The translations under genes were made by a program, and so were the position numbers. This document shows positions 5,001 to 62,296 of a DNA stretch of 64,000 bases, in pieces. How positions within the stretch are numbered: the stretch's first letter is position 1; each line of letters starts with the position of its first letter. The notes below the pieces were generated by a model that had not been told where the DNA came from, made no database searches, and saw nothing but the letters and a program-made list of their open reading frames with translations. The DNA comes from a virus (taxonomy: Duplodnaviria; Heunggongvirae; Uroviricota; Caudoviricetes), in IMG/VR virus record IMGVR_UViG_2925891887_000001. The stretch is one strand, 5' to 3'.

Positions 5001-5635
5001 GCAAATACATCATCAACGTATCGTTTCAGACACGCGTAAATAAAACCACGCGCACGTTGGAAATCGCTGAGTCGTTCGGGCTTGGCCTGGACGAAAAAGA
5101 GTGGACGCTTTACGACAATCTGGAGCTGGAAGTGAAGCAGGGCGATGTGGTGTACATTACCGGCCAATCCGGTTCCGGCAAATCCGTTGTGCTGCGCGAG
5201 CTGCAACACCAGATGAAGGATGAAGGGCTATCTGTGGCCTCCATCGATGATTTTACCTTCGATAATGAGGTTAACGTCATTGACCAACTGGGCAAAACTA
5301 CCAGTGATGCGCTTGGGTTGTTATCTATGGCTGGTCTGAACGATGCATATCTGTTTGTTCGCAAGCCTTCTGAAATGTCAGACGGTCAGAAATATCGTCT
5401 CAAGATTGCCAAACTGATTGAGTCAGGCGCTAAAGTGTGGGCTGCTGACGAGTTCGGCGCTGTTCTCGACCGTGTAACCGCTCAGGTTGTGGCATCTAAC
5501 CTCCAGCGTGCCGCTCGAAAGGTTGGTGCGACGGTAATGGTGGCGACGACTCACGAAGACCTGAAGAACGCGCTGCGCCCGGATATGCAGATCACCAAGC
5601 ACTACAAAGAACGCGTGAAGGTGGAATATGCCTGA
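4997..5635 (+). CDS. ABC-type ATPase domain protein
   Basis: Walker A GQSGSGKS, ABC signature-like SDGQKYRL, Walker B VWAADEFGAVLD, H-loop TTHE; stand-alone 212 aa. Confidence 0.6.
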   Translation: MSKYIINVSFQTRVNKTTRTLEIAESFGLGLDEKEWTLYDNLELEVKQGDVVYITGQSGSGKSVVLRELQHQMKDEGLSVASIDDFTFDNEVNVIDQLGKTTSDALGLLSMAGLNDAYLFVRKPSEMSDGQKYRLKIAKLIESGAKVWAADEFGAVLDRVTAQVVASNLQRAARKVGATVMVATTHEDLKNALRPDMQITKHYKERVKVEYA

Positions 5636-48619: not shown

Positions 48620-49938
48620 AAAAGTTGATCGCACTTAAGCATAAGCTGGACGAAATGAAAGCTATAGGAACCAATGCAAAAAAAGAGGCATTGGCCAACA
48701 TGGATGACTTTGAACAAAGCATGGTTTCATTGATGCTCAACCCTTTCATCCGTTTTGGGGTAAAGAAATACAAAGTGGCAGAGCCGCTTAGTGAGTCCAT
48801 CCCAAGTGACGTAAAAGCCATTGATGTACTGAATAAGCTGGCCTCTCGCGAGCTAACGGGGAACGCAGCAATAGCAGCTGTTGAGTCTATCGTGGCGTCA
48901 ATGTGCGCCGATGGGCAGGACGTGTTCCGTCGTTTCCTCTTAAAAGACCCGAAAGCAGGTGTTGGGATTAGCCTATGCAACAAGGTTTTTGAAAATCCCA
49001 TTCCGAAATTCGAGGTGCAGCTGGCGTCACCGTATAAAGAAAAAGGCGACAAATACCCCTTCAAGCCAAATCCTAAAGCAAAATGGCCGATGATTGGCAG
49101 TCTTAAGCTCGATGGTTTGCGAGTAATTTGCGAGGTTATTGTTGACGAGGAAGAGGTTAACTTCCTTTCTCGTACTGGTAATCCAATCACGTCTCTCGAT
49201 CACCTAAAGCCAGCAATGCTCGAATTAGGCAAACTTTCAGGCCACAAACACATCTTCTTCGATGGTGAAGGAACAGCCGGTTCATTTAACCAGTCCGTAT
49301 CTGCATTGCGCAAAAAGAACGTGCAGGCAATTGGCGCTATTTATCATGTTTTCGACTTCTTCCTACCGGAATGGCGAGCACAGGCTAAATCCAAAGAGTA
49401 TGCAAAGACAGGTATGAAGCTGAAAGAGCGCCTGGCTATTCTCGTGGCGTTGTTCAAAAACGATCGCAGTGAAGGCTACACACAAGACATTCACCTGCAT
49501 CCGTTCTATATCATCCATAGCCACGAAGACTTCATCGAACGCTTCATGAAACGCCTGGACGATAATGAAGAAGGGGAGATGGGCAAAGATCCGAACTCTG
49601 TTTACGAGTTTAAACGTACCCGCAGCTGGTGGAAGTTAAAAGACGAAGATTCAGAAGATGGTGAAATTATCGATTTTGAGCCGGGCGATCCGGACTCTGG
49701 TTTTGCCAACACGCTTGGAAAAATTGTTATTCGTCTTGAAAACGGCGTCATCGTTCGTGCGAGCGGTATTAAGCATAAATATCTGGACGAGATCTGGAAC
49801 AACAAAGAGAAGTACCGTGGTCGTATTGTTGAGGTTCATTGTCACGAGAAAACACCGGATGGCAGCTTACGCCACCCCCGACTGAAATGGCCGCGTTGCT
49901 TACGCGATACAGAAGATCGAATCGGAGATAAAGAATGA
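48616..49938 (+). CDS. ATP-dependent DNA ligase
   Basis: Motif I KLDGLR (adenylation lysine), motif III-like FFDGEG, motif V-like WWKLK; 440 aa. Confidence 0.75.
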   Translation: MKKLIALKHKLDEMKAIGTNAKKEALANMDDFEQSMVSLMLNPFIRFGVKKYKVAEPLSESIPSDVKAIDVLNKLASRELTGNAAIAAVESIVASMCADGQDVFRRFLLKDPKAGVGISLCNKVFENPIPKFEVQLASPYKEKGDKYPFKPNPKAKWPMIGSLKLDGLRVICEVIVDEEEVNFLSRTGNPITSLDHLKPAMLELGKLSGHKHIFFDGEGTAGSFNQSVSALRKKNVQAIGAIYHVFDFFLPEWRAQAKSKEYAKTGMKLKERLAILVALFKNDRSEGYTQDIHLHPFYIIHSHEDFIERFMKRLDDNEEGEMGKDPNSVYEFKRTRSWWKLKDEDSEDGEIIDFEPGDPDSGFANTLGKIVIRLENGVIVRASGIKHKYLDEIWNNKEKYRGRIVEVHCHEKTPDGSLRHPRLKWPRCLRDTEDRIGDKE

Positions 49939-50114
49939 TGCTCGGCTGGATGATTGCATTTTTAGCAGTTGGTTTTTTCATAGGTATTGTGGTGATGTCC
50001 AGTTGCATCAATGACTACATTAAAAGCGGTGTTATAGAAAGACGCGGTCGTATTTATCGCATTGTAGAAATAACCAACACCCTGAAGGAGATTAAGGATG
50101 ATCGTATTAAGTAA
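49935..50114 (+). CDS. Small membrane protein (59 aa), not in ORF track
   Basis: ATG overlaps ligase stop; one TM helix (LGWMIAFLAVGFFIGIVVM) then basic tail RRGRIYRIVEIT; paralogous to 50310-50462. Confidence 0.4.
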   Translation: MMLGWMIAFLAVGFFIGIVVMSSCINDYIKSGVIERRGRIYRIVEITNTLKEIKDDRIK

Positions 50115-50313
50115 ACGGGAGAAGGAAACGCTTCATGAAATCAGTAAGTGGCCGGAGTTCCCTGAGTACTGGAAGCCTAAAACGCGAGCTAAGTTAGAGC
50201 GTTTAGGGTTGGTTGCAAACGTTTCTGAAACGTGGTGTTCGGCCAACTACCAGTTAACTGATAAAGGGAAAGTATTGCTACAGCAATTAGTAGAATCAGG
50301 AGTGTTAAAATGA
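50098..50313 (+). CDS. Hypothetical small protein
   Basis: 71-aa ORF from track. Confidence 0.35.
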   Translation: MIVLSKREKETLHEISKWPEFPEYWKPKTRAKLERLGLVANVSETWCSANYQLTDKGKVLLQQLVESGVLK

Positions 50314-50462
50314 TTCCATACATCTCATTAGCTTTTATGGGTGGCTTCCTTATCGGCTTCGGCATCTGTCGTGATTTAGTTAAGCAGGAACTTAAAACCA
50401 AAACACTGTGCATCGGAAAGCGTGTGTATCGGGTAGTTCATGAAACAAAGGTGAAAAAATGA
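50310..50462 (+). CDS. Small membrane protein (50 aa), not in ORF track
   Basis: One TM helix (ISLAFMGGFLIGFGIC) then basic tail GKRVYRVVHET; same architecture as 49935-50114. Confidence 0.4.
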   Translation: MIPYISLAFMGGFLIGFGICRDLVKQELKTKTLCIGKRVYRVVHETKVKK

Positions 50463-50749
50463 GCAATTTAACTTCTTGGGAATGGTGGTTGGCCACCTAT
50501 TTCTTAGCGGCCGGAGTCGCATTCGCCTTTTACGTAGGTCAGTTAGTCGTAAAACTGTTGCTGATTAAATTTGCTAGTCATAAACGTATCGATGATGGTC
50601 TGTGGCGTCTTGGCGCCCTGGTGGAAACTCGCTACGGGCAACTTAAGGAGAACGAAACCATTACTATCCAAGCGAAACGATTCACTGCCACCATTACAAG
50701 AACACCTAGTCGTAGAGTGGCCTTGATCAAAAAAGTCACAACCGAATAA
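50459..50749 (+). CDS. Small membrane protein
   Basis: 96 aa with N-terminal TM (WWLATYFLAAGVAFAFYVGQLVV). Confidence 0.4.
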   Translation: MSNLTSWEWWLATYFLAAGVAFAFYVGQLVVKLLLIKFASHKRIDDGLWRLGALVETRYGQLKENETITIQAKRFTATITRTPSRRVALIKKVTTE

Positions 50750-51527
50750 AAACATATTGATAAGTATTTACTTACTTATCTTTTGTGTATAAGATGACTT
50801 TGTTTTCGTTGAGACGCGACTGTTTGAACTTAAATACAAGTGCAAACGAAGAAGTCTATCTGGCAGTAGCCTAATAAGCCAAACACCAGCGAGGTCAGTT
50901 TCCAGCCTCGTTACCGAAATGGGACACACTGAGCGAGTGTGATTGCAGAACGCAGGAGGGAACATTCATGTTCCCTCCGATGAAGTAACAGAATGGGCGG
51001 TTGGTATATTTTCAACTCCATATGACTCCCGGATTCTTAGCCACTGACCGCCCATCCTGTTACGTCATTTTGTTCAATTATGTCGTTTATACTGGGTTAA
51101 AAAGCGGCGACGTAGCCCGGCTGGTATGGTTAGCCAGCACACAACGTTGAGGCCATTACATTTTTATCAATTCTAAGGTTCTATTCACAGAGATACCGGC
51201 GAGCGTTGATATGTAACATGTTGGGCAAACATTCAATCGGAGTAGTGGCCTCAACGTTGTGAAGACGGGATTGTTGTGTAGGTTTAACCACTGTTGCCAT
51301 TGGTGCCTGTTTTCACAACAAATGATTCCATACATCACATTGTATAAATTACAAAGTAGGTGCTGTCCTCAGAAACATCATCTACTTAAAGATTTTGCCT
51401 TCTACTATTGAGCGAAGTCGAAAGCGTCTGGCACTAACGAAAAGTGCAAGTAGCGGTGCGTTTCCTGGCAGAAACTAAACCGTCGCGATTGGCACTGTTG
51501 AGTAATAAATACTGGCAGTGCTGAATT

Positions 51528-51602
51528 GATGGTGTAGCTCAGCGGTAGAGCAGTTGGCTGTTAACCAACTGGTCGGTGGTTCGAATCCACCCACCATCGC
51601 CA
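51528..51602 (+). tRNA. tRNA-Asn (anticodon GTT)
   Basis: Manual fold: acceptor gatggtg/caccatc, D-arm tagctcagcggtagagca, anticodon loop ctGTTaa, T-loop ggttcgaatcc, encoded CCA. Confidence 0.8.
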
Positions 51603-51607
51603 ATTTA

Positions 51608-51694
51608 GGGGAGTTAGTCCGTAGAGGTAGCGGTGTAGACTGTAAATCTACTGTCATGGCGACTCGGGTGGTTCGACTCCATCACTCCCCACCA
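51608..51694 (+). tRNA. tRNA-Tyr (anticodon GTA), long variable arm
   Basis: Acceptor ggggagt/actcccc, anticodon loop ctGTAaa, long variable arm, T-loop ttcgact, encoded CCA; D-arm pairing weak. Confidence 0.7.
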
Positions 51695-51698
51695 AATT

Positions 51699-51774
51699 GC
51701 CGGTTTAGCTCAGTTGGTAGAGCAGTCGCTTTGTAAGCGAATGGCCAGCGGTTCAAGTCCGTTAACCGGCACCA
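51699..51774 (+). tRNA. tRNA-Thr (anticodon TGT), tentative isotype
   Basis: Acceptor gccggtt/aaccggc, D-arm tagctcagttggtagagca, anticodon loop ttTGTaa, T-loop ttcaagt, encoded CCA. Confidence 0.7.
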
Positions 51775-52094
51775 ACACAACAGGTAAGAGCATTGGGCGA
51801 ATCGGCGATACTGACCCACAAGGCCGTAAATCGATAGAGTCAGACCAGTGCTCTTACCGTTGTGAGGAAGTGCAGCTCTTTGAAGCAACCAGAAGATAAG
51901 CATCTGGCTTCACAACACAACGATAATATCATTACGGTTAATCGTCGTTCATGTGCACAATGACTGGTCGAAAGGTAGTGATCTTACCGTTGTGATGAAT
52001 GCACAGGCTGATGTGCCGCAACTACAGTAGTGCGCGCTTTGCGGGGCTTGCTACAACCCTGTGTCGGAGTTCAGCACCGACCATCACAATAGCT

Positions 52095-52181
52095 GGAGAG
52101 TAGGGAGCATGGTGCTCAAGCGGTCTTGAAAACCGTCCCATTGTGCAAACGATGATGGTTCGATTCCATTACTCTCCGCCA
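52095..52181 (+). tRNA. tRNA-Ser (anticodon TGA), atypical D-arm
   Basis: Acceptor ggagagt/actctcc, anticodon loop ctTGAaa, long variable arm, T-loop ttcgatt, CCA; D-arm lacks canonical GG. Confidence 0.55.
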
Positions 52182-52335
52182 GACACAGCGTTGAGCGGTT
52201 TGGCCTTTTAATCAACTCGATTAAGACTCCGCTAACATAAACCAGACCGCTCAACGCTGTGATAGATAATTACGGCAGACGTTCTTAACCATAGCTTGCT
52301 AACATCCTAGCAACACTTTTTTCAGCGCAAAATTC

Positions 52336-52358
52336 AAAGGGGCTTCGGCCCCTTTTTT
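52336..52358. terminator. Bidirectional rho-independent terminator
   Basis: aaaggggc-ttcg-gcccctttttt; serves plus-strand tRNA cluster and minus-strand gene ending at 52374. Confidence 0.8.
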
Positions 52359-52373
52359 GTTGAACAGTGCAAT

Positions 52374-53636
52374 TTACTTTGCATAGTCGCCCAATTTTAA
52401 TATTTCGCGCTTATATTCATTAACCATGCTACTGGATTCAGTATAAATTCGATTTAAAAGATTATCGTTATCTTTATTTTCATTTATCTTAATTAGTGCT
52501 AATTTATATTCATAGTCATCAAATGCCACAATTAAATGGTGGCCTGGGATTATATCTTCGTCACTCTTAAAGTATATATCTTCAAGTATGTAATCTAGTT
52601 GATTAGATTTTCTTTTCTCGATGTAATCTTCAGCCATAGCTATTACATCATTCCTGTCATTTAACCTGTTTTTTTCGGAAGGCACATCTTCGTAATGTTG
52701 CACGATTGAACAACCAATAAGGCGTGGGATGTAAACGTCAAAATGAGTAACTCTATCATTCGCGGTTTTAAGTAGTTCCTCAAAGTAGTTTCTTACATGT
52801 AAAGGCAACTTCTCAAAGTAATCATTAATTATAGGAGAACAAGGAGTTTTATAATTCATAAGAACCGACGGTACGAGCTTTGGGTGTCGAAACATCCAGT
52901 CCCTTTTAACGTCCGATGGAACATAATAACTTTTAATGATATTATCAAAATAATTTATCATTCGAGATTTGAATATTTTGTTGAATCTAAGGTTTATGAA
53001 TGTATCCAGATAAGGCATATTTGAATAAGCATCATCAAAAAATATTTCATCATTGAAAAAATCATATTTATTCAATAAACAACACAGTTTTTCCGAATTA
53101 ATATGTTCACAATAATCGATTTTTAATCCAAAGATAGCAATGATCAACTTCATCTGAGGTGGGATTTTAAAAATTAATTGTGACACATACGCTCTTTTTT
53201 CCTTGAGACATTCCCCATCAATATAAAATGAACCATCCACATACTCAAATATATTAATAATATGCTTCACATACTGTATTACCTCATGCTGTCTTACCAA
53301 TGGATAATATAGTCTATGTAACTCATCGCTGTTTAAATTAATTTTGTGTTTATCGATAATTTGTTTTGCAAGAAGACATAACTCATCATGTTGATTTAAT
53401 AAGGAATCAAACCATTGTTTAAATGCACTCTTTCGCATTTCGAACAATGATTCAGTTGTTAATTGAAGGGCTGAAAAAGCTGCTTTTGCACTTTTTCTCG
53501 CTTCGTAGGCATTCCATGCTGTTGCTATAAAAGCAAATGCTGTAGCCAATGTTCCAACAGTTTGACCATTTAAAACAACCCAATCCCAAAAAATGACGGT
53601 GAGCAGTAGTATAATAATGAAAATTAAAAAAGGCAT
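52374..53636 (-). CDS. Hypothetical membrane protein, low-GC cargo gene
   Basis: 420 aa; N-terminal hydrophobic segments (FLIFIIILLLTVIFWDWVV; LATAFAFIATAW); strongly AT-rich; only minus-strand gene here. Confidence 0.5.
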   Translation of the reverse strand: MPFLIFIIILLLTVIFWDWVVLNGQTVGTLATAFAFIATAWNAYEARKSAKAAFSALQLTTESLFEMRKSAFKQWFDSLLNQHDELCLLAKQIIDKHKINLNSDELHRLYYPLVRQHEVIQYVKHIINIFEYVDGSFYIDGECLKEKRAYVSQLIFKIPPQMKLIIAIFGLKIDYCEHINSEKLCCLLNKYDFFNDEIFFDDAYSNMPYLDTFINLRFNKIFKSRMINYFDNIIKSYYVPSDVKRDWMFRHPKLVPSVLMNYKTPCSPIINDYFEKLPLHVRNYFEELLKTANDRVTHFDVYIPRLIGCSIVQHYEDVPSEKNRLNDRNDVIAMAEDYIEKRKSNQLDYILEDIYFKSDEDIIPGHHLIVAFDDYEYKLALIKINENKDNDNLLNRIYTESSSMVNEYKREILKLGDYAK

Positions 53637-53810
53637 GTATGTATTTCACTCTACTAACTATAAAATATTAGGCTAATGTTAACCAAACAATGCCTTAATT
53701 AATAGATTGATCGAGGCTTTAATAGCTTTATAATGCAGACTTTAAAGATAAGTATGCACATACCTATCTTCTTTGTAAGTAAAGTTGCATATCAATTCTA
53801 TGAGGTAACA

Positions 53811-54056
53811 ATGACGATCACTATCTACGGACGAGATAACTGCTCATACTGCAAACGTGCGGTCGAGCTGGCGAAGCAACTAAAGGGACATGGCTACGGT
53901 GATTATGAGTACATCGACATCACCACTGCCGGTATCGACAAGGAAAAACTAAGTGAAATTGTTGGTAAACCGGTAGAGACTATCCCCCAAGTGCTGATCG
54001 ATGGCCAACCGATTGGCGGATACACAGAACTGGCTGCATACGTCAGCACCCTCTGA
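53811..54056 (+). CDS. Glutaredoxin (GrxA-like)
   Basis: CxxC active site (NCSYC) and strong resemblance to E. coli glutaredoxin 1 layout (KPVETIPQVLIDGQPIGGYTELAAYV); ATG after GAGGT; terminator at 54061-54083. Confidence 0.85.
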   Translation: MTITIYGRDNCSYCKRAVELAKQLKGHGYGDYEYIDITTAGIDKEKLSEIVGKPVETIPQVLIDGQPIGGYTELAAYVSTL

Positions 54057-54060
54057 TTTT

Positions 54061-54083
54061 AACGGCTCACAGGAGCCGTTTTT
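54061..54083 (+). terminator. Rho-independent terminator
   Basis: aacggctc-acag-gagccgtt followed by TTT. Confidence 0.7.
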
Positions 54084-54266
54084 ATTCCCACCAAACTCAC
54101 TCCCGTTTCCCTTAAAATTCAAAAAACAACGTCAAAATGATTCCATACCTACTATGTATGGAATCATTACTGAAAATGAGTTACTTTTACTCTTGATCCT
54201 ATAAGAATCTATGCCTAATATACTGTTTACTTATACAGTAAATCGGCGTAACTCGGTGATTGTCAT

Positions 54267-55370
54267 ATGAAAAATAGCTTTGACAGAGCACGCGCTGCGG
54301 AGAACACCTCAAAAGAGGCGATTGAGTATCTCGAAAGAGCATCTCAAATGCAGGCCGTTATGATCTCGCAGGTCAGCAATGACATGAGATTCTCGGACGC
54401 ATTCATGTTATTCACTCGCTTATCTCTGCTGATAACAAGACGTCGGCCAGAGATCGCTGTTCATTGTATTTTGATACATGTTTTGCCGCACATTGCCGAT
54501 GTAAAAGTAAGTGACATTAATAGGTTCATGGTGAACCAACTGGTCAACCCACTAATACTGGATGGCAAAATTGTTATGGGCCGCCGCGTTTTCTCTCTGA
54601 TGAAGCAGTTCCTTAGCTGGTGCGCCTTCCAGGGGATGATAGACGTGTCACCGTTAAACGATATGTCACTAAACAAAGTTGCCGGTGGCGCAAAGCCCAC
54701 ACCTCGCGAGCGGAAGCTGACCGACGCAGAGGTATGGGTGTTCTGGAATATATGGGACTACTTCAATGTGTGCGCTGGTACAAAATGGGCGGCCAGGCTG
54801 TGTCTTGTATCCGCAAGACGACCTGACGAAGTACTGCGGGCTAAAAAAAGTGAGTTCAATCTTAAGCGTGGGGTTTGGAATCAAGGCAAGAGGAACAAAT
54901 CTGCCCGTGAGCATTCGCTGCCTTTAAGCACATTAATGCGCACATGTATTGAAGAGTTGTTCGAATACGGTAAAGGCAGCCAGTGGCTCGTGCCTTCGAA
55001 TAAAAAAATCGGGAAAGACCTTCCTATGTCTAAAGTGGCAATAGCCCAGGCATTACGTCGTATCCTGGAACGACCAGAACTGATGGAGCTTGAGCCATTT
55101 ACACCCCGAGACTTGCGCCGTACTGCGCGTAGTTACTTCCCAGCATTAGGCATAAGCCAGGAGGTCTCACGCAAAATCATGAACCACAGTCTTGAGGGGA
55201 TAGATCGAGTCTACGACCGGCACGATTATATGGACGAGATGCGAGACGCCTTAGAAAGTTTCTCGACGTACATCGCATCAATCGTAGAGCAACCGGATTT
55301 AGACGAAATTGACCACAAATTCAAGGGAGATCGTCTATCAACAGAGCTTATTCGTGTAAATTTTTCATAG
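54267..55370 (+). CDS. Tyrosine recombinase / integrase family protein
   Basis: C-terminal catalytic region with conserved Arg (LVSARRPDEV), box II-like PRDLRRTARSY, then NHSLEGIDRVYDRHDY with candidate catalytic Tyr; 367 aa. Confidence 0.65.
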   Translation: MKNSFDRARAAENTSKEAIEYLERASQMQAVMISQVSNDMRFSDAFMLFTRLSLLITRRRPEIAVHCILIHVLPHIADVKVSDINRFMVNQLVNPLILDGKIVMGRRVFSLMKQFLSWCAFQGMIDVSPLNDMSLNKVAGGAKPTPRERKLTDAEVWVFWNIWDYFNVCAGTKWAARLCLVSARRPDEVLRAKKSEFNLKRGVWNQGKRNKSAREHSLPLSTLMRTCIEELFEYGKGSQWLVPSNKKIGKDLPMSKVAIAQALRRILERPELMELEPFTPRDLRRTARSYFPALGISQEVSRKIMNHSLEGIDRVYDRHDYMDEMRDALESFSTYIASIVEQPDLDEIDHKFKGDRLSTELIRVNFS

Positions 55371-55751
55371 AGACTTTATGGCCTCAACAACCTTTTGTGA
55401 TGCGCCTTTCTCTTTACCGAATCGCTCGTTATATGCAGCAAGAACCTGTTTTTCGTCCTCGTTAAGAGGAGCGGTGCCTTCTTTGTATAAAAATGCTGCG
55501 AGTTCAGGTTGGCGTTCTTCCAGCACCATCATCATAAGACGACTTGGCTCAATACCCAGCGCCAGCGCCAACGGACGAACCTTATCGATAGGCAAAGGAA
55601 TTTTGCCACTTTTAATTAAAGAAAGGTTGTTGGCATTTTTATAACCAATAAGTCTGGCTATTTGGGCCTGACTCATAGGTGAGGATTCAATCAGCCCTGC
55701 GATAAAAGCGGCATAGCGACTTTCTATAAATTCAATCTTGTTGTCAGACAT
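55365..55751 (-). CDS. XRE-family HTH transcriptional regulator (repressor-like)
   Basis: HTH segment SQAQIARLIGYKNANNLSLIKSG; 128 aa; divergent from 56002 ORF, with palindrome GGTAAGTGCTTACC about 32 bp upstream of its start. Confidence 0.65.
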   Translation of the reverse strand: MSDNKIEFIESRYAAFIAGLIESSPMSQAQIARLIGYKNANNLSLIKSGKIPLPIDKVRPLALALGIEPSRLMMMVLEERQPELAAFLYKEGTAPLNEDEKQVLAAYNERFGKEKGASQKVVEAIKSL

Positions 55752-56001
55752 TGTTACAACCTTTGCGCGTTCAATTCTCTCTGGTAAGTGCTTACCGATA
55801 TTACATCAAAGGTTAGGGTTGTAAAGCTATTATCATTTTTTCGATAGGCACTTAAAAGACCGGTTAAAGGCCATTGCACGGAGAAAAATTAGCCCAAAAC
55901 AGGTAAGAAAATTAACTTGCATATGATATGAATGTATTCAGTATTGATATAAATTTTAGTAGTATTCCTTACCATAGTATAAGTTAGAATGGATTGATTG
56001 A

Positions 56002-56214
56002 ATGAACACCACTATTTCCAGCCTAATCGCTCTTGAGATCGGACACGTACAGAAATTAGCTGATGAGTGTGTAGCTGACATCCTCACCGATCTACCGAAT
56101 GAGCAGATTCAGGTTGGTGTGAATGACACAACTGGCTTTATATTCGAACTTAACAACAAACGCTTCACGCTTCTCAATATCGGCTCCGGGTCTTTAGCCG
56201 TCAGAATCTGTTAA
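56002..56214 (+). CDS. Hypothetical small protein
   Basis: 70-aa ORF divergent from XRE regulator; followed by hairpin at about 56229-56263. Confidence 0.3.
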   Translation: MNTTISSLIALEIGHVQKLADECVADILTDLPNEQIQVGVNDTTGFIFELNNKRFTLLNIGSGSLAVRIC

Positions 56215-56312
56215 CCCCTCTTCTCCCTGCGCGAATGGCTTAGTTCCCTGTTCGCGCAGTGCTACATTAAACACACTAGTAAATAATTTGTTTTCATAAC
56301 AAAGGATTAGCC

Positions 56313-58421
56313 ATGTCTAAAAAACGTTCCATCAAAGAGGTTCAGGACTTCCGTGACAGTGTAAAACGAGTAGTCGCTCTCCTTTCAGGTAAAAACATCC
56401 CTGTTGCAGAACGAGGGGACGACGCTTATGTACGCTATAACGATGATGGAGAGCCAATTCTCGTAAACATCCCATCAATCCCGGATAACGCAACACCGGC
56501 ATTGATGAATGCTGTGCGCGGATTTCTCGATCATGAGGTTGCTCACATTTTGTTTACCGATATTCGTGTGTCCAACAAAATGAGAGAAAAAGGACGCGTT
56601 CCTTCCTGGTCGCTATGGAATGCCTTAGAAGACGTGTTCATCGAGCGAAAAATGGGTCAGGTCTTTAACGGAACAAGACGTAATCTGATGGCAACTCAGC
56701 GCCTTATAATCGAAAAAGTCTTTAAACCAAAGGCTTCAGAGGCTATTGCTTATTGTGGCAAAGATCAGCGCGCGCTTTTTCTAAACTTCTTTCTCTGTCC
56801 GGTTGTAAGAGCCTGGGATGGCCAAGCACCGTTCGTAGATTTCATGGATGAACATTGGCCTGTCATTGAGAAACCAATTTCATTATTAAAAGAACATGGT
56901 ATCGATGTGGCCGTGCGTAACATGTCTTGCACCGAGGATTGTGTAAAGGTGGCTGCGACCATAGCTAAGATCCTCAAAGACACTGAAAGTGAAAGCAAAG
57001 GTAAGGAGTCAGCTCCGGGAAAAACTTCCGATCCTTCAGACGCTGACCAGACGGATGCCTCTGGAGAAAACAATGAAGACAACGAAGATCATGAGACTCC
57101 CTCAGTGTTAGATAATCACAAATCTATCAAATCAGAATCACATAGTAAGTACAAACATGATAATAACAACAGTGATGATTCAGATAATTCTGAATCATCA
57201 GAAACAATATTCGATGATACAGAAAATGATAAAGAGGTATCAGATTCTGATGCTTCTGATAACGCGGCGTCAGAATCATTAACCGCTGACCACGAAAAAA
57301 GAAAAACGACAGAAGACGGCTCTTCAGATATCCCAACTCCGTCAAAAATGAGTCTGGAAGAGGCTTTAGAGGAGCTGGATAGCATAGAAGATGAAGTCGG
57401 AGGCATGACAGAAGATGCTCTATCCGAAACGATTAAAAGCGAGTTAACAGAAAGCTCGAAAAGCGAATACAGGCCATACAATCGCTCATACGACTTCATC
57501 GGCTCGATTGATCAGGCAGAAGCCCATATCAAACGGCTTATTAAAACATTCTCCGATATTGATTTGGGAGGATATCCAATCAGCCGCTATCGCATCGTTC
57601 CTGAAGGCAACCAGCTCTTCGACAAATATATTGAAAAGCATCTTTCGTCAGGTGTTTCGTCGACGCTGGCAAAAGACCTGGAGCGAGCAATAGCAAGCAG
57701 AAACAGAGTTCAGTTTATACCGGGCCAGCGTCGGGGGCGCATTCATGGTTCTAGTATCTACAGATTAGCAATGAATGATGCTCGCGTGTTTCGTAAAAAA
57801 GAAGAATCTAAAGCCGTTAACGCCTGTGTTCAACAAGTGATTGATTTATCAGGTTCAATGAGTGGTATAACGATTAAACTGGCTCTTGCAAGTGCATATA
57901 CCATCGCCGATGCCCTTGATCGAATAAATGTTCCCAACATTATCACTGGCTTCACTACATTTGGTAGTCATATGGCGGCAGGAGAACTTAAGGCTGTCAA
58001 GTATGAGTTCTCTCGCTTTGAATCTTTAATGCTACCTATCATCAAAAATTGGAATGAAAAGGTAAATTCTCGCGAAGTTCGCTCACGTATGGGGTGCGTA
58101 GGCTACACATTCCCACTTCTTAATAACGTGGATGGTGAAAGCATAGCCAGCCTTGCATCGTTATTTTCCGGTCGCATGGAGGACAGGAAGATCATGCTTG
58201 TTCTGAGTGATGGCGCGCCGTGGGCTGTTGGGAGAGGTTTTGACGCTCATTTGCGTTCAGTTGCGAAGCAAATTGAAACGCAGACTGATATTGATTTGAT
58301 GGCAATTGGCATCATGACTGACGCACCGGAGAGATTTTACTCAAATCATGCCCTGGTAACGAGCGTTGATAGTCTTGGTTCATCTGTAGTTACTGAACTA
58401 TCTCGTATCATTTTAAAGTGA
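56313..58421 (+). CDS. von Willebrand factor A domain protein (CobT-like) with long acidic linker
   Basis: MIDAS-type motif DLSGSMSG in C-terminal VWA region; central acidic, Ser/Asp/Glu-rich low-complexity stretch; 702 aa. Confidence 0.65.
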   Translation: MSKKRSIKEVQDFRDSVKRVVALLSGKNIPVAERGDDAYVRYNDDGEPILVNIPSIPDNATPALMNAVRGFLDHEVAHILFTDIRVSNKMREKGRVPSWSLWNALEDVFIERKMGQVFNGTRRNLMATQRLIIEKVFKPKASEAIAYCGKDQRALFLNFFLCPVVRAWDGQAPFVDFMDEHWPVIEKPISLLKEHGIDVAVRNMSCTEDCVKVAATIAKILKDTESESKGKESAPGKTSDPSDADQTDASGENNEDNEDHETPSVLDNHKSIKSESHSKYKHDNNNSDDSDNSESSETIFDDTENDKEVSDSDASDNAASESLTADHEKRKTTEDGSSDIPTPSKMSLEEALEELDSIEDEVGGMTEDALSETIKSELTESSKSEYRPYNRSYDFIGSIDQAEAHIKRLIKTFSDIDLGGYPISRYRIVPEGNQLFDKYIEKHLSSGVSSTLAKDLERAIASRNRVQFIPGQRRGRIHGSSIYRLAMNDARVFRKKEESKAVNACVQQVIDLSGSMSGITIKLALASAYTIADALDRINVPNIITGFTTFGSHMAAGELKAVKYEFSRFESLMLPIIKNWNEKVNSREVRSRMGCVGYTFPLLNNVDGESIASLASLFSGRMEDRKIMLVLSDGAPWAVGRGFDAHLRSVAKQIETQTDIDLMAIGIMTDAPERFYSNHALVTSVDSLGSSVVTELSRIILK

Positions 58422-59958: not shown

Positions 59959-62296
59959 CTTCTCACTTGGGGAGTCGGCTCTAAAAGCAGAAAACGCGGT
60001 GAAGATTGCCAGAGAAGCTGGCTACACCGCTGTAATTTCAGCAGATAGCATGAATATTGCGAGCGTTATTCCACTACAACGTGCCGCTGGTGACGACATG
60101 GCGGTTATTTGTGGTGTGAAACTAAACATTGTTGATGATCCCACATACGAGCACCGGGCTAAACTTGCTAAAGAATCTATGAGATGTATGGAATCATTAG
60201 AGCGAGGACGTAACTACTCGTTTACCGCTCTAATTAAAAATGAGAAAGGATATCGCGACATCTGCGAACTAATGACGGCGGCCAACACACGAGAACAGTT
60301 CTACTTTGTACCGCGTCTCTCGCTCGAACAGTTGGTTTCTACATATGCCAAAGGCAACATCATCCTGCTTACTTCCGACATCGGTAGCGTGTTCCAACGC
60401 AACGATTTTGCAAAAATCATAAGCACACTGATTACAGCGGGTGGAAAAGACAACTTCTATAGTGTGGTTTATCCGCACCCTACCCCATTCTACGACCAGA
60501 TTAACGTCCGGGCGATGAAAGTCGCCAGCGCATTGAAAATAGAGCCAGTGGCGTTCTATCCCGCTTATTACGAATCGATCGACGATGCAGACATTAAAGA
60601 CATTGCGCACATGGTTACGAACAACATCAAAATCGACCAGCCGCATCGTCTGCGTATCCCCCACCAGCGAGATAACGCCGTCAATGGTCGCCGCCATCTC
60701 CTTGAGGCGCTTAAAGCCTTCTCCGTTCGCATGGATGTGCCGGTAACAGCTGCAATGGCCTCAACAACGCAGGATACCATTATCGATGCCTGCACATGGC
60801 GCTGGCATGAATTGCCGCCAGCACTGCCAAAGATGGCAGACGACGAGCCTGCAACGCTGATGAAACTGGCTGTTGCAGGGCTGCGTAAACGTCTTACCAC
60901 AAAAGAGTTTGGCTACACACCACCTGCTTCTGAGAACAGGGTTTATGTTGAGCGGCTAAAGTACGAAATGGACACGCTGACTCGCCTGGGATTCTGTGGT
61001 TACTTCCTGATGGTGCGCGATCTGATGAATCATAGTCGTGAAACTGGCATTCCCGTTGGGCCTGGTCGTGGTTCCTCTGCCGGTTCTCTGGTGGCGTGGT
61101 GCATAGGCATAACCAACGTCGACCCAATCCGTCACGGTCTTCTGTTTGAGCGTTTCATCAACCCTGAGCGTCTCGACTTGCCGGATGCGGACTTGGACTT
61201 CAGCCAGGCACGTCGCCATGAGGTGATCGAGTATCTGAATGAACGCTACGGCGAAGATTACGTTGCAGGCATTCCGAACTTCACCTACCTGGGCGCAGCC
61301 TCTGCACTACGTGATACCGCTCGTATTTATGGTGTGGAGTCCGCAGATATGGCGGTATCAAAAGAGCTGAAGAACGTCGAGGATGATAGCCTTCCATTGG
61401 AGGAGCTGCGCGAACAACTGGCAAGTCTCGACAAATACGCAACAAAATATCCTGATGCATTCAATGCAGCCTGCAAGTTACAAAGCCTTATGCGTGGCTT
61501 TGGTAGACATGCGGCAGGGATGATCGTAGCAGGTGTTCCTCTGACAGAACGTACACCGGTTGAACGCCGTGGTGACGCGCGTTGTATCGCATTTGACAAG
61601 CGTTACTGCGAGGCTATGGGCCTAATTAAGCTGGACGTGCTTGGCCTGGCAACTCTCGATTTGCTCGATAGTGCAAAACGCTACATAAAAGAGAACACAG
61701 GTGAAGATATCAATCTTGATGCCATTTCTCTTGAAGATCGCAAGGTGCTGGATGGTTTTGCTGCAGGGTATACACAGGGCGTATTCCAGCTTGAATCAGG
61801 CCCAATGCGCAAGCTGCTTAAAGATTTAGGTGGTGGAATTGAGCCAATGAGCTTTAAAACGGTCGTCGCTACAACTGCGCTCTTCCGACCTGGCCCGATT
61901 CAATCCGGCATGTTGGACGATTATGTGTCCGTGGCCAAAGGCTTCATGGCCCCACATTCCTTACACCCAATGCTGGACGACATCTCTCGCGACACAAACG
62001 GAGTTCTGATTTATCAGGAACAGATCATGGCTGCTACGCGAATCTTGGCGGGGTTCTCAATGGCGGAAGCAGACTCGGTCAGGAAAGCGATCGGGAAAAA
62101 AGATATGGAGAAAATGAAATCCATTGGCGGCGACTTCATTAAGCGAGCGGAGGAAGGCTGGGTGACAGTGTCACTGGATGATGGTTCTACGAGAAAAATC
62201 CATAAAGCAGCACGCCTACTTTGTGCTGATGGTGAGCGTCGCACTTATGCCGAAGCAATGGCAATAAATGCCGACATAACGAGCTTCGATATTTGA
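59933..62296 (+). CDS. dnaE: DNA polymerase III alpha (DnaE-type), N-terminal segment ending at interruption
   Basis: Degenerate PHP-like N-terminus, palm motifs GPGRGSSAGSLVAWCIGIT and PDADLDF, FRPGP fingers motif; about 43 codons before the stop stop resembling DnaE. Confidence 0.85.
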   Translation: MKALMVRTDFSLGESALKAENAVKIAREAGYTAVISADSMNIASVIPLQRAAGDDMAVICGVKLNIVDDPTYEHRAKLAKESMRCMESLERGRNYSFTALIKNEKGYRDICELMTAANTREQFYFVPRLSLEQLVSTYAKGNIILLTSDIGSVFQRNDFAKIISTLITAGGKDNFYSVVYPHPTPFYDQINVRAMKVASALKIEPVAFYPAYYESIDDADIKDIAHMVTNNIKIDQPHRLRIPHQRDNAVNGRRHLLEALKAFSVRMDVPVTAAMASTTQDTIIDACTWRWHELPPALPKMADDEPATLMKLAVAGLRKRLTTKEFGYTPPASENRVYVERLKYEMDTLTRLGFCGYFLMVRDLMNHSRETGIPVGPGRGSSAGSLVAWCIGITNVDPIRHGLLFERFINPERLDLPDADLDFSQARRHEVIEYLNERYGEDYVAGIPNFTYLGAASALRDTARIYGVESADMAVSKELKNVEDDSLPLEELREQLASLDKYATKYPDAFNAACKLQSLMRGFGRHAAGMIVAGVPLTERTPVERRGDARCIAFDKRYCEAMGLIKLDVLGLATLDLLDSAKRYIKENTGEDINLDAISLEDRKVLDGFAAGYTQGVFQLESGPMRKLLKDLGGGIEPMSFKTVVATTALFRPGPIQSGMLDDYVSVAKGFMAPHSLHPMLDDISRDTNGVLIYQEQIMAATRILAGFSMAEADSVRKAIGKKDMEKMKSIGGDFIKRAEEGWVTVSLDDGSTRKIHKAARLLCADGERRTYAEAMAINADITSFDI

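Follow-up and report, generated by a model that had tools for sequence, protein, structure and literature searches.

Phage-plasmids of the SSU5 type are treated in the literature as non-integrating elements, and their persistent genes include tyrosine recombinases that are listed without an assigned role (PMC7969092, PMC12977533). Papers on SSU5, pHCM2 and phage-plasmids name an 'integrase' or 'tyrosine recombinases' and give no site or function for them. Cre/loxP of P1 and related plasmid systems such as ResD/rfsF of F come closest to the arrangement reported here: in them, as at our locus, a tyrosine recombinase without an arm-binding domain lies beside a single site. The IntSXT/P4 subgroup of tyrosine recombinases is defined by an arm-binding domain, DUF4102/PF13356 (PMC8138268). 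We analysed a 64,000-nucleotide stretch of Caudoviricetes DNA, IMG/VR virus record IMGVR_UViG_2925891887_000001 (the window), around positions 52374–56214, where an earlier note had described a four-gene island next to tRNA genes: an AT-rich membrane protein of 420 amino acids, a glutaredoxin, a tyrosine recombinase and an XRE regulator.

All four genes were found at the positions given in that note, but they did not hold together as one island, because the left part varies among relatives and the recombinase and XRE-like genes are syntenic core genes. The region is the junction of two things, a cargo slot at 52360–54135 and a core maintenance and lysogeny module. We consider it likely that the slot is swappable, holding an AbiC-like gene and a glutaredoxin gene (grx) in this element, and that it adjoins a core recombinase with a lox-like site that would serve plasmid multimer resolution without integration.

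The recombinase and its candidate site

The segment 51400–56400 matched more than 1200 plasmid records, the best being an E. coli plasmid with 99.3% identity over the full length. It also matched the SSU5-like phage-plasmids Cyrano, CMS-2020a and PhiR41_1 (Escherichia phages) and, at about 74%, Klebsiella pJN2-26. Genes for an ATP-dependent DNA ligase, CobT/CobS-like proteins and DnaE lie nearby. These matches and neighbouring genes indicated that the window is an extrachromosomal SSU5-type phage-plasmid of E. coli, and the phage-plasmid assignment made earlier was thus borne out. A search of 5426 complete E. coli genomes placed the recombinase gene at 254 positions in 251 genomes, every one of them on a plasmid and none chromosomal; SSU5-like carriers accordingly make up about 5% of these genomes. 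A 56-bp site query, even at E ≤ 10, returned the same 251 genomes and no chromosome, so that an integrated chromosomal copy, which the earlier note had considered, was found for neither the gene nor the site. In PLSDB the recombinase was present in 932 plasmid records, one copy each, of which 899 were non-mobilizable; the hosts included Klebsiella, Escherichia, Enterobacter, Yersinia pestis, Salmonella, Pantoea and Rahnella, and the Pantoea and Rahnella plasmids were 326–613 kb in size. Homologues of 42–99% identity were numerous and lay on contigs of about 100–115 kb or on megaplasmids.

The recombinase matched PF00589 with 39.4 bits (cutoff 27.1) over residues 172–320, and phrog_1 at 1.1e-46. 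As a single sequence it matched no PDB chain, Cre included, at E ≤ 0.01; its profile gave marginal partial matches to XerH and to a phage integrase core-binding domain. The active site comprises R185, K211, R281 (in the His-II place), R284, H307 and Y316, with Arg-I aligned to Arg-I of XerH. Apart from R281, these residues were invariant or nearly so in 19–26 aligned homologues. The R-to-H/W-to-Y spacing, 23 and 32 residues, was the same as that of Cre. Alignment with P4-type homologues, on which the equivalence of the His-II position rests, placed R281 of the motif RDLRRT where the P4-type relatives have H (HDLRRT). R281 was invariant in 19 of 19 family members (42–87% identity), whereas six of seven outgroup proteins had H. 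The family alignment thus confirmed the earlier reading of box II as RDLRRT, with Arg for His; as for a canonical active site, it was found in the PF00589 match and in five conserved catalytic residues, with Arg replacing His-II. In some subgroups, conservation at the His-II position is known to be lower (PMC8138268).

The P4-type outgroup proteins (P0121–P0127) carry PF13356. No match to this domain was found in the recombinase, and the domain columns were empty in the alignment. These results suggested that the recombinase is a secondarily 'simple' enzyme, derived from a P4/SXT-type integrase by loss of the arm-binding domain.

About 100 bp upstream of the recombinase gene, at 54136–54168, we identified a pair of perfect 13-bp inverted arms around an asymmetric 7-bp spacer. 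This is the recombinase's probable target site, which the earlier note had missed. A 13-7-13 site precedes the recombinase gene by 77–285 bp in all 66 of 66 loci (the window, three phages and 62 loci from a species-wide scan for recombinase homologues). Arms of the SSU5-like clade read ATGATTCCATAC; in a clade of 45–52% identity (Pantoea, Rahnella, Erwinia, Xenorhabdus, Photorhabdus and Ewingella) both arms read GTGACTCCAGAC, a joint switch to TGTGACTCCAGAC. Arm positions 6/28 and 11/23 switched together between the clades, and the outer pairs 1/33 and 2/32 varied repeatedly. The arms were 95.8% paired, slid registers fell to 20–37% paired, and the observed covariation was reached by none of 500 shuffles.

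For the reverse search, the site pattern alone was used against IMG/VR. It returned 109 loci, with the recombinase adjacent in 105, and three of the four exceptions were truncated. The sole untruncated locus in which no recombinase homologue was detected within 5 kb, L183 (IMG/VR 2791355157_000004, site 5271–5299), carries a TGACTCCAGAC-type 13-7-13 site. Among the 62 scanned recombinase loci, which lie outside the close relatives, the XRE gene was present in seven, and no other neighbour family occurred in more than 21. The palindrome appears to belong to the recombinase and not to the regulator, because site and recombinase co-occur, the XRE gene is present at so few loci, and a lone recombinase gene on megaplasmids keeps the site. 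Two such megaplasmid loci, on a 549-kb plasmid of Rahnella sikkimica (L069) and a 326-kb plasmid of Pantoea stewartii (L070), have the recombinase and palindrome as a lone unit; its neighbours are chemotaxis, type VI secretion system and metabolic genes, with no phage or integrative and conjugative element context.

The spacer was always 7 bp long and occurred in at least 16 versions. Some of these pair up as reverse complements when read relative to the gene (CTACTAT and ATAGTAG; TTAATAG and CTATTAA), and the PhiR41_1 spacer is the reverse complement of that in the window. Such variation is expected where only arm binding and the identity of the partner spacer matter. The complete PhiR41_1 sequence contains one full palindrome. 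A search for cer/dif-like Xer sites gave no credible candidate in the window or in the complete PhiR41_1 sequence. A literature search for the arm sequences returned unrelated primers only, and no description of the site or of the recombinase's function was found in the searchable literature.

Three isolated half-sites, AATGATTCCATAC(ATC), are identical to the arm (Table 1), against a chance expectation of about 0.002 exact copies of the 13-mer in the window. All half-sites are oriented towards the palindrome. They keep their place in Klebsiella, at about 70% flanking identity, and in other E. coli elements, and one remains inside the non-homologous replacement segment of PhiR41_1; none was found in the megaplasmid clade. 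The half-sites may be accessory recombinase-binding sites or regulatory sites. An antisense-RNA target was set aside for the 13-mers, since the complement would be locked in a perfect hairpin. A protelomerase or telomere site was likewise rejected for the palindrome, as the records are circular and the spacer is odd in length and asymmetric.

The cargo slot and its genes

Core and cargo were separated by comparison of the window with Cyrano, PhiR41_1, pJN2-26 and four further E. coli plasmids. The genes for the recombinase, the XRE-like protein, a 70-amino-acid open reading frame (ORF), CobT, CobS and DnaE were collinear in all relatives compared, and this core order was kept in E. coli, Klebsiella, Yersinia and Kluyvera relatives. 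Only 52360–54135 was variable, with different contents in each relative examined. At the left edge, Cyrano homology stopped at 52359, by the tRNA terminator; at the right edge, the homology breakpoints fell at 54118–54136, at the palindrome. The slot holds gp49, grx and a 184-amino-acid gene in Cyrano, and PhoH, gp49, grx, a YafO toxin and a colicin-immunity-like gene in pJN2-26. Among the other E. coli plasmids its contents are variously a DUF6645 protein, a 164-amino-acid gene or a 431-amino-acid homologue of the 420-amino-acid protein.

In the infectious PhiR41_1, window positions 48645–54135 (ligase, tRNAs, cargo and grx) are swapped for a 6.4-kb segment (record positions 80095–86508) that contains a chaperone-usher fimbrial operon and an AraC regulator, with the junction exactly at the palindrome. 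Homology with PhiR41_1 starts exactly at 54136, and about one-third of the sampled E. coli plasmids likewise begin at the palindrome (query positions 35–37). The 54136 breakpoint is as expected if crossovers in the spacer swap left flanks between co-resident elements; the same picture would come from selection that merely preserves the site.

Promoter and terminator scans indicated that the cargo units have their own promoters and terminators, and lysogens of Cyrano express one slot gene at 723-fold over background (PMC9928086). The slot therefore has the character of an accumulation point for independently expressed accessory genes. Integron-like cassette capture was rejected: the slot contains no attC-like repeats, promoters and terminators come with the units themselves, and the recombinase is not IntI but groups with P4-type integrases.

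The genes of the supposed island differed in how widely they are present. The recombinase and XRE genes were collinear among relatives, the glutaredoxin was near-core (210 of the 251 E. coli carrier genomes, 84%) and only the gene for the 420-amino-acid protein was rare (39 of 251); like the recombinase gene, both of the latter were confined to plasmids, with no chromosomal occurrence. No att-like direct repeats flanking 52374–56214 were found beyond short matches at chance level.

The 420-amino-acid ORF has a GC content of 0.314, and 0.28 at third codon positions, versus 0.46 for the window. Hydropathy of its product showed a strong hydrophobic helix at the N-terminus and another, weaker helix, and an AlphaFold2 model (mean predicted local distance difference test score, pLDDT, 85) was all-alpha, with no fold match in the PDB. 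The protein falls in phrog_18168, a family of unknown function. Seven homologue clusters were found among 5.8 billion proteins, and a profile search over 1.84 billion representatives gave 66 relatives. Of 46 aligned family members, 32 matched putAbiC PF16872 (best 1.4e-11), and PADLOC matches in the same set were to AbiC in six and AbiP in three. When the query clade was compared with the putAbiC-positive clade, hhalign returned 99.9% and E 4.5e-36 over 302 columns, including the domain. A 2026 review describes AbiC and AbiP as having one or two transmembrane helices and an extramembrane helical domain, with no structural prediction (PMC13064643). The 420-amino-acid protein is thus a probable divergent AbiC/AbiP-type abortive-infection or exclusion protein, and its gene is recently acquired, accessory and compositionally foreign cargo. 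The earlier description as an AT-rich accessory membrane protein stood, whereas its 'unknown function' gives way to a place in the AbiC/putAbiC superfamily, which the family profiles reached and which direct models and PDB fold comparison did not. Anchored at its N-terminus by two helices and expressed from the resident plasmid, the protein would abort or exclude infection by other phages.

The glutaredoxin belongs to the GrxA family (NF008401 equivalog, 107.8 bits versus a cutoff of 84) and also matched PF00462 and phrog_22 (nucleotide metabolism). Its start was placed at 53811, behind a GAGG ribosome-binding site, and not at 53733, the start of the longest ORF. Its composition resembles the rest of the phage, and no near-identical chromosomal copy was found among the 5426 genomes; 'host-like', as the gene had been called, is therefore correct for the family only. 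The relative PhiR41_1 encodes NrdAB, a class Ia ribonucleotide reductase. The glutaredoxin is probably a near-core phage gene whose product serves as reductant for the element's class Ia ribonucleotide reductase.

Regulation and competing explanations

A LexA (SOS) box lies 26 bp upstream of the recombinase ATG, by a TAATAT hexamer, and had also been missed earlier. It matches the consensus at 17 of 20 positions and is the sole CTGT-N8-ACAG in the window. By chance alone, 64 kb should contain about one such match (mean 0.88), and the argument for the box is its position and conservation: relatives from E. coli, Klebsiella, Yersinia and Kluyvera have retained it at about −46, Buttiauxella has a weaker form, and the distant megaplasmid clade has none. 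PhiR41_1 has just one further strong LexA box, in front of a umuD-like gene. We propose that the box puts the recombinase gene under SOS control in SSU5-like elements. Ciprofloxacin induces Cyrano (PMC9928086). SOS control may simply raise the supply of resolvase as RecA-driven multimerisation rises, or read-through from the recombinase gene into the repressor gene that converges on and overlaps it may help induction.

The regulator gene converges on the recombinase gene with a 6-bp overlap. The protein matched phrog_8 ('transcriptional regulator') at 6.6e-12; its Pfam helix-turn-helix (HTH) matches were below curated cutoffs (HTH_19, 18.9 bits versus 30.2), and no cleavable or peptidase domain for RecA action was found by Pfam search. 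The Cyrano homologue, CYRAN_45, is a putative master repressor expressed in lysogens (PMC9928086), and the XRE-like protein is a probable lysogeny repressor. Its predicted −35/−10 promoter (55825–55798) is adjoined or overlapped by the perfect 14-bp palindrome GGTAAGTGCTTACC, which is unique in the window at 0 mismatches. Across seven relatives of five genera the core of this sequence showed two variable positions (the G/A centre and the final C/T), while the intergenic surroundings diverged. The operator-like palindromes that the earlier note had reported at the regulator are thus confirmed in this one, which is distinct from the recombinase site.

For the recombinase we favour resolution of plasmid multimers, which is also the better of the two roles, integrase or dimer-resolution enzyme, that had been offered before. 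Two recombinase monomers would bind the 13-bp arms, directly repeated sites on a plasmid dimer would synapse, Tyr316 would cleave at the edges of the 7-bp spacer, and strand exchange would return dimers to monomers, in the manner of Cre acting on loxP in P1. Terminally redundant DNA that has entered by infection could be circularised by this reaction as well. The recombinase would not insert the element into the chromosome.

Several points weigh against this reading. Only the anatomy is observed, and all functional statements are drawn from comparative sequence evidence. The first His of the RKHRH pentad (His-II of box II, HxxR) is Arg, and the arm covariation is mainly one deep two-clade split with few independent events. 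At L183, no recombinase homologue was found within 5 kb at E 1e-10. The Cre/lox and Xer systems have nothing comparable to the half-sites at 50309, 51321 and 60186, the palindrome upstream of the gene could be an autoregulatory operator only, and there is no established reason for SOS control of a resolution enzyme. As to the cargo, the 420-amino-acid protein itself had no direct match in Pfam (even at E ≤ 10), NCBIfam or PADLOC (even at E ≤ 1), its AbiC membership is transitive, through homologues, and AbiC lowers capsid-protein production by a mechanism that is not known (PMC13064643).

The alternative closest to the earlier island makes the recombinase an integrase that would place the block, or the element as a whole, at a tRNA gene. 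Its nearest outgroup consists of P4/SXT-type integrases that target tRNA genes (PMC8138268), a tRNA cluster lies 2 kb upstream, and the 420-amino-acid gene is foreign in composition. However, neither gene nor site is on a chromosome in any of the 5426 complete E. coli genomes, the recombinase and XRE genes are core and syntenic, the recombinase has no arm-binding domain, and the block has no flanking direct repeats. The tRNAs are phage-borne and vary independently, and no tRNA was found within 10 kb of recombinase homologues outside the SSU5-like group. Because all 254 of 254 places are plasmid-borne, the site is never chromosomal and those homologues have no tRNA near them, integration appears excluded as far as the data reach, and we regard this alternative as barely credible. 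A 33-bp palindrome that is an operator only, bound by the recombinase in autoregulation or by another protein, with the recombinase acting elsewhere or being a domesticated regulator, is quite improbable in our judgement. The palindrome does lie between a terminator and the recombinase promoter, its freely varying spacer would also suit a dimeric binding site, and identical half-sites are kept at three other places, one of them over a start codon; these could be further operators, comparable to the dispersed asymmetric C1 operators of P1. Yet 13-bp arms and a 7-bp spacer are the geometry of a tyrosine-recombinase core site and are long for a dimer of a 128-amino-acid HTH protein. A role as the XRE operator in particular was rejected, as the XRE protein has its own, different candidate operator elsewhere and its gene is absent from 55 of 62 palindrome loci. 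The catalytic residues other than His-II, including the Tyr, are invariant at 42–87% identity, which is unexpected for a pure regulator; the megaplasmid loci have the palindrome without half-sites; and autoregulation and recombination at one site are not mutually exclusive.

The recombinase and its site might also serve mainly the lytic or infection cycle, by circularising terminally redundant virion DNA or in an SOS-triggered event at induction, a version that includes LexA-released transcription antisense into the convergent repressor gene. The LexA box overlaps the recombinase promoter, and this only in SSU5-like phage-plasmids, the two genes converge and overlap by 6 bp, and the repressor has no RecA-targetable peptidase domain, yet Cyrano is induced by ciprofloxacin; a comparable dual role is held by Cre in P1 (PMC7969092). 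Against this, the same recombinase–site pair is carried, without the LexA box, by non-phage megaplasmids of 326–613 kb, which therefore point to a plasmid-related ancestral role, and we think it distinctly unlikely that the lytic or infection cycle is the main one. With regard to the cargo, the 420-amino-acid protein may not be a defence protein at all; it could act in superinfection exclusion at DNA entry, as a toxin or holin-like effector, or as a host-interaction factor. The missing direct defence-model and fold matches would suit such roles, as would the other, non-defence cargo of the slot (fimbrial usher genes, YafO toxin and colicin-immunity-like protein). On the other side stand the strong profile-level homology to putAbiC-, AbiC- and AbiP-positive proteins and the architecture of two transmembrane helices plus a helical domain in common with AbiC, and we place the non-defence roles on the unlikely side.

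Flanking features and comparison with known systems

To the left of the slot, the four tRNAs and the bidirectional terminator reported earlier were confirmed (Table 1). P1, P7, D6 and N4-like phages carry similar tRNA clusters, and the number of tRNAs differs among relatives. The cluster belongs to the phage itself and is neither an att site nor an integration target. A search of 50000–57000 with Rfam found the tRNAs alone. Immediately 3' of tRNA-Ser and upstream of the terminator is an exceptionally stable hairpin, perhaps with a role in processing or termination. Structure is also seen in the spacer that separates tRNA-Thr from tRNA-Ser (51776–52094), which has a hairpin at 51783–51858 (z −4.75) and a direct repeat of 23 nt (51847, 51977); within this spacer, 51849–51916 is 92.6% identical to Klebsiella pJN2-26, compared with about 72% for adjacent DNA. 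The spacer, which is absent from Cyrano and has no Rfam match, could represent a small RNA or what is left of a tRNA. Further upstream, about 780 bp before the tRNA cluster (50750–51527) contain no convincing ORF and are bounded by two half-sites about 1 kb apart, a spacing kept in Kluyvera and Klebsiella relatives. On the right, the 70-amino-acid ORF is the first gene of the transcription unit that runs towards CobT, CobS and DnaE, and an inverted repeat, CTGCGCGAA...TTCGCGCAG, lies at 56228–56260 between this ORF and cobT.

Table 1. Positions of genes, sites and signals in the window.
Feature	Position	Strand	Basis or remark
Isolated half-site AATGATTCCATAC(ATC), overlaps start codon of a 50-aa ORF	50309..50321	+	identical to arm
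Isolated half-site AATGATTCCATAC(ATC), upstream of tRNA cluster	51321..51333	+	identical to arm
tRNA cluster Asn-GTT, Tyr-GTA, Thr-TGT, Ser-TGA	51528..52181	+	ARAGORN, Rfam
Hairpin, 20-bp stem, 3' of tRNA-Ser	52184..52261	+	inverted repeat; fold −41.2 kcal/mol, z −10.4
Bidirectional intrinsic terminator, left slot edge	52336..52355	.	G+C-rich hairpin, A and T runs on both sides
420-aa AbiC/AbiP-like two-helix membrane protein (probable)	52374..53636	-	GC, profile comparison
grx promoter, sigma-70-like, TTGATC-16-TATAAT	53707..53734	+	promoter scan, 10/12 matches
GrxA-family glutaredoxin, 81 aa, CSYC motif	53811..54056	+	NF008401, PF00462
Intrinsic terminator after grx	54061..54080	+	terminator scan
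Lox-like site AATGATTCCATAC-CTACTAT-GTATGGAATCATT, proposed recombinase target, right slot edge	54136..54168	.	inverted repeat
LexA (SOS) box TACTGTTTACTTATACAGTA	54221..54240	.	upstream of recombinase ATG
Tyrosine recombinase, 367 aa, core-binding and catalytic domains	54267..55370	+	PF00589, PF22022
Degenerate half-site CTTGATTCCAAAC inside recombinase gene (int +606)	54873..54885	-	intact in Yersinia, Kluyvera relatives
XRE-like HTH regulator, 128 aa	55365..55751	-	phrog_8
Candidate XRE operator GGTAAGTGCTTACC, perfect 14-bp palindrome	55783..55796	.	just downstream of predicted −10
Conserved 70-aa ORF, divergent from regulator	56002..56214	+	phrog_2627 4.9e-40; syntenic in relatives
Isolated half-site AATGATTCCATAC(ATC), inside dnaE	60186..60198	-	identical to arm

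SSU5-like phage-plasmids are common in clinical Enterobacterales, and their 'integrase' is annotated without a function although the elements do not integrate. With a defined 33-bp candidate site, a role of the recombinase in dimer resolution, circularisation or the SOS response becomes directly testable. A broader proposal seems to us possible, though short of probable: that this is an undescribed, self-contained Cre/lox-like system on more than 900 Enterobacterales plasmids and phage-plasmids, in which the spacer variants are compatibility classes, the half-sites are accessory binding sites, the SSU5-like phages are SOS-wired and the site is the edge of a gene-exchange hotspot. Its range would include Yersinia pestis plasmids of pMT1 size and the megaplasmids of Pantoea and Rahnella. 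If it is true, site-specific crossovers between co-resident elements swap adjacent cargo. The slot shows an entry point for cargo such as defence, toxin and fimbrial genes, which is relevant to tracing how traits are carried between strains. The recombinase would also show, as a case from nature, how a complex integrase can be reduced again to a Cre-like enzyme, with Arg tolerated at His-II, and the recombinase–site pair, with its natural spacer variants, is a possible orthogonal tool beside Cre, Dre and Vika.

Among the described counterparts of the cargo genes, lactococcal AbiC and AbiP resemble the 420-amino-acid protein in having N-terminal transmembrane helices followed by an all-helical domain without a structural homologue, and in being plasmid-borne single genes; the profile-level homology runs through family members. 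The 420-amino-acid protein differs in being below detection on the PF16872 and PADLOC models and in coming from Enterobacterales, on a phage-plasmid, where it is known by homology only. The cargo gene thus appears to add a remote member to the AbiC/P family. The glutaredoxin is of the E. coli GrxA and T4 NrdC type: it passes the GrxA equivalog cutoff, belongs to the family of small thioredoxin-fold proteins and likewise occurs in an element that codes for its own NrdAB. It differs from GrxA in its CSYC motif, the active-site motif of host GrxA being CPYC, and in being borne by plasmids or phages only. The glutaredoxin, the tRNAs and the regulator are ordinary.

The closest sequence relatives of the recombinase outside its family are the P4/SXT-type (IntSXT) integrases, PRK09692/DUF4102-containing proteins of 24–34% identity, which have 'DLRRT', 'H-x-LP' and 'VYDRHDY'-type motifs in common with it. 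In contrast to them, the recombinase family has no DUF4102/PF13356 and has R for H in HDLRRT, is never chromosomal and adjoins no integration-target tRNA, and its site is a symmetric core without detectable arm-type sites. Cre has no detectable sequence relationship to the recombinase, but the site has the anatomy taken here as Cre/lox-like, namely 11–14-bp inverted arms, an asymmetric 6–8-bp spacer and a gene-linked single site. As in Cre/loxP, there are two 13-bp inverted arms and a short asymmetric spacer, with one site per genome, on an extrachromosomal phage-plasmid and beside the immunity region. The differences are a spacer of 7 bp and not 8, Arg for His-II, a catalytic domain from P4/SXT-type integrases, and the upstream LexA box and extra isolated half-sites of a system known here from its sequence. 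The module thus resembles Cre/loxP in predicted function and in anatomy, and by descent it would be a stripped P4/SXT-type integrase. Overall, these are known kinds of system and not a new kind.

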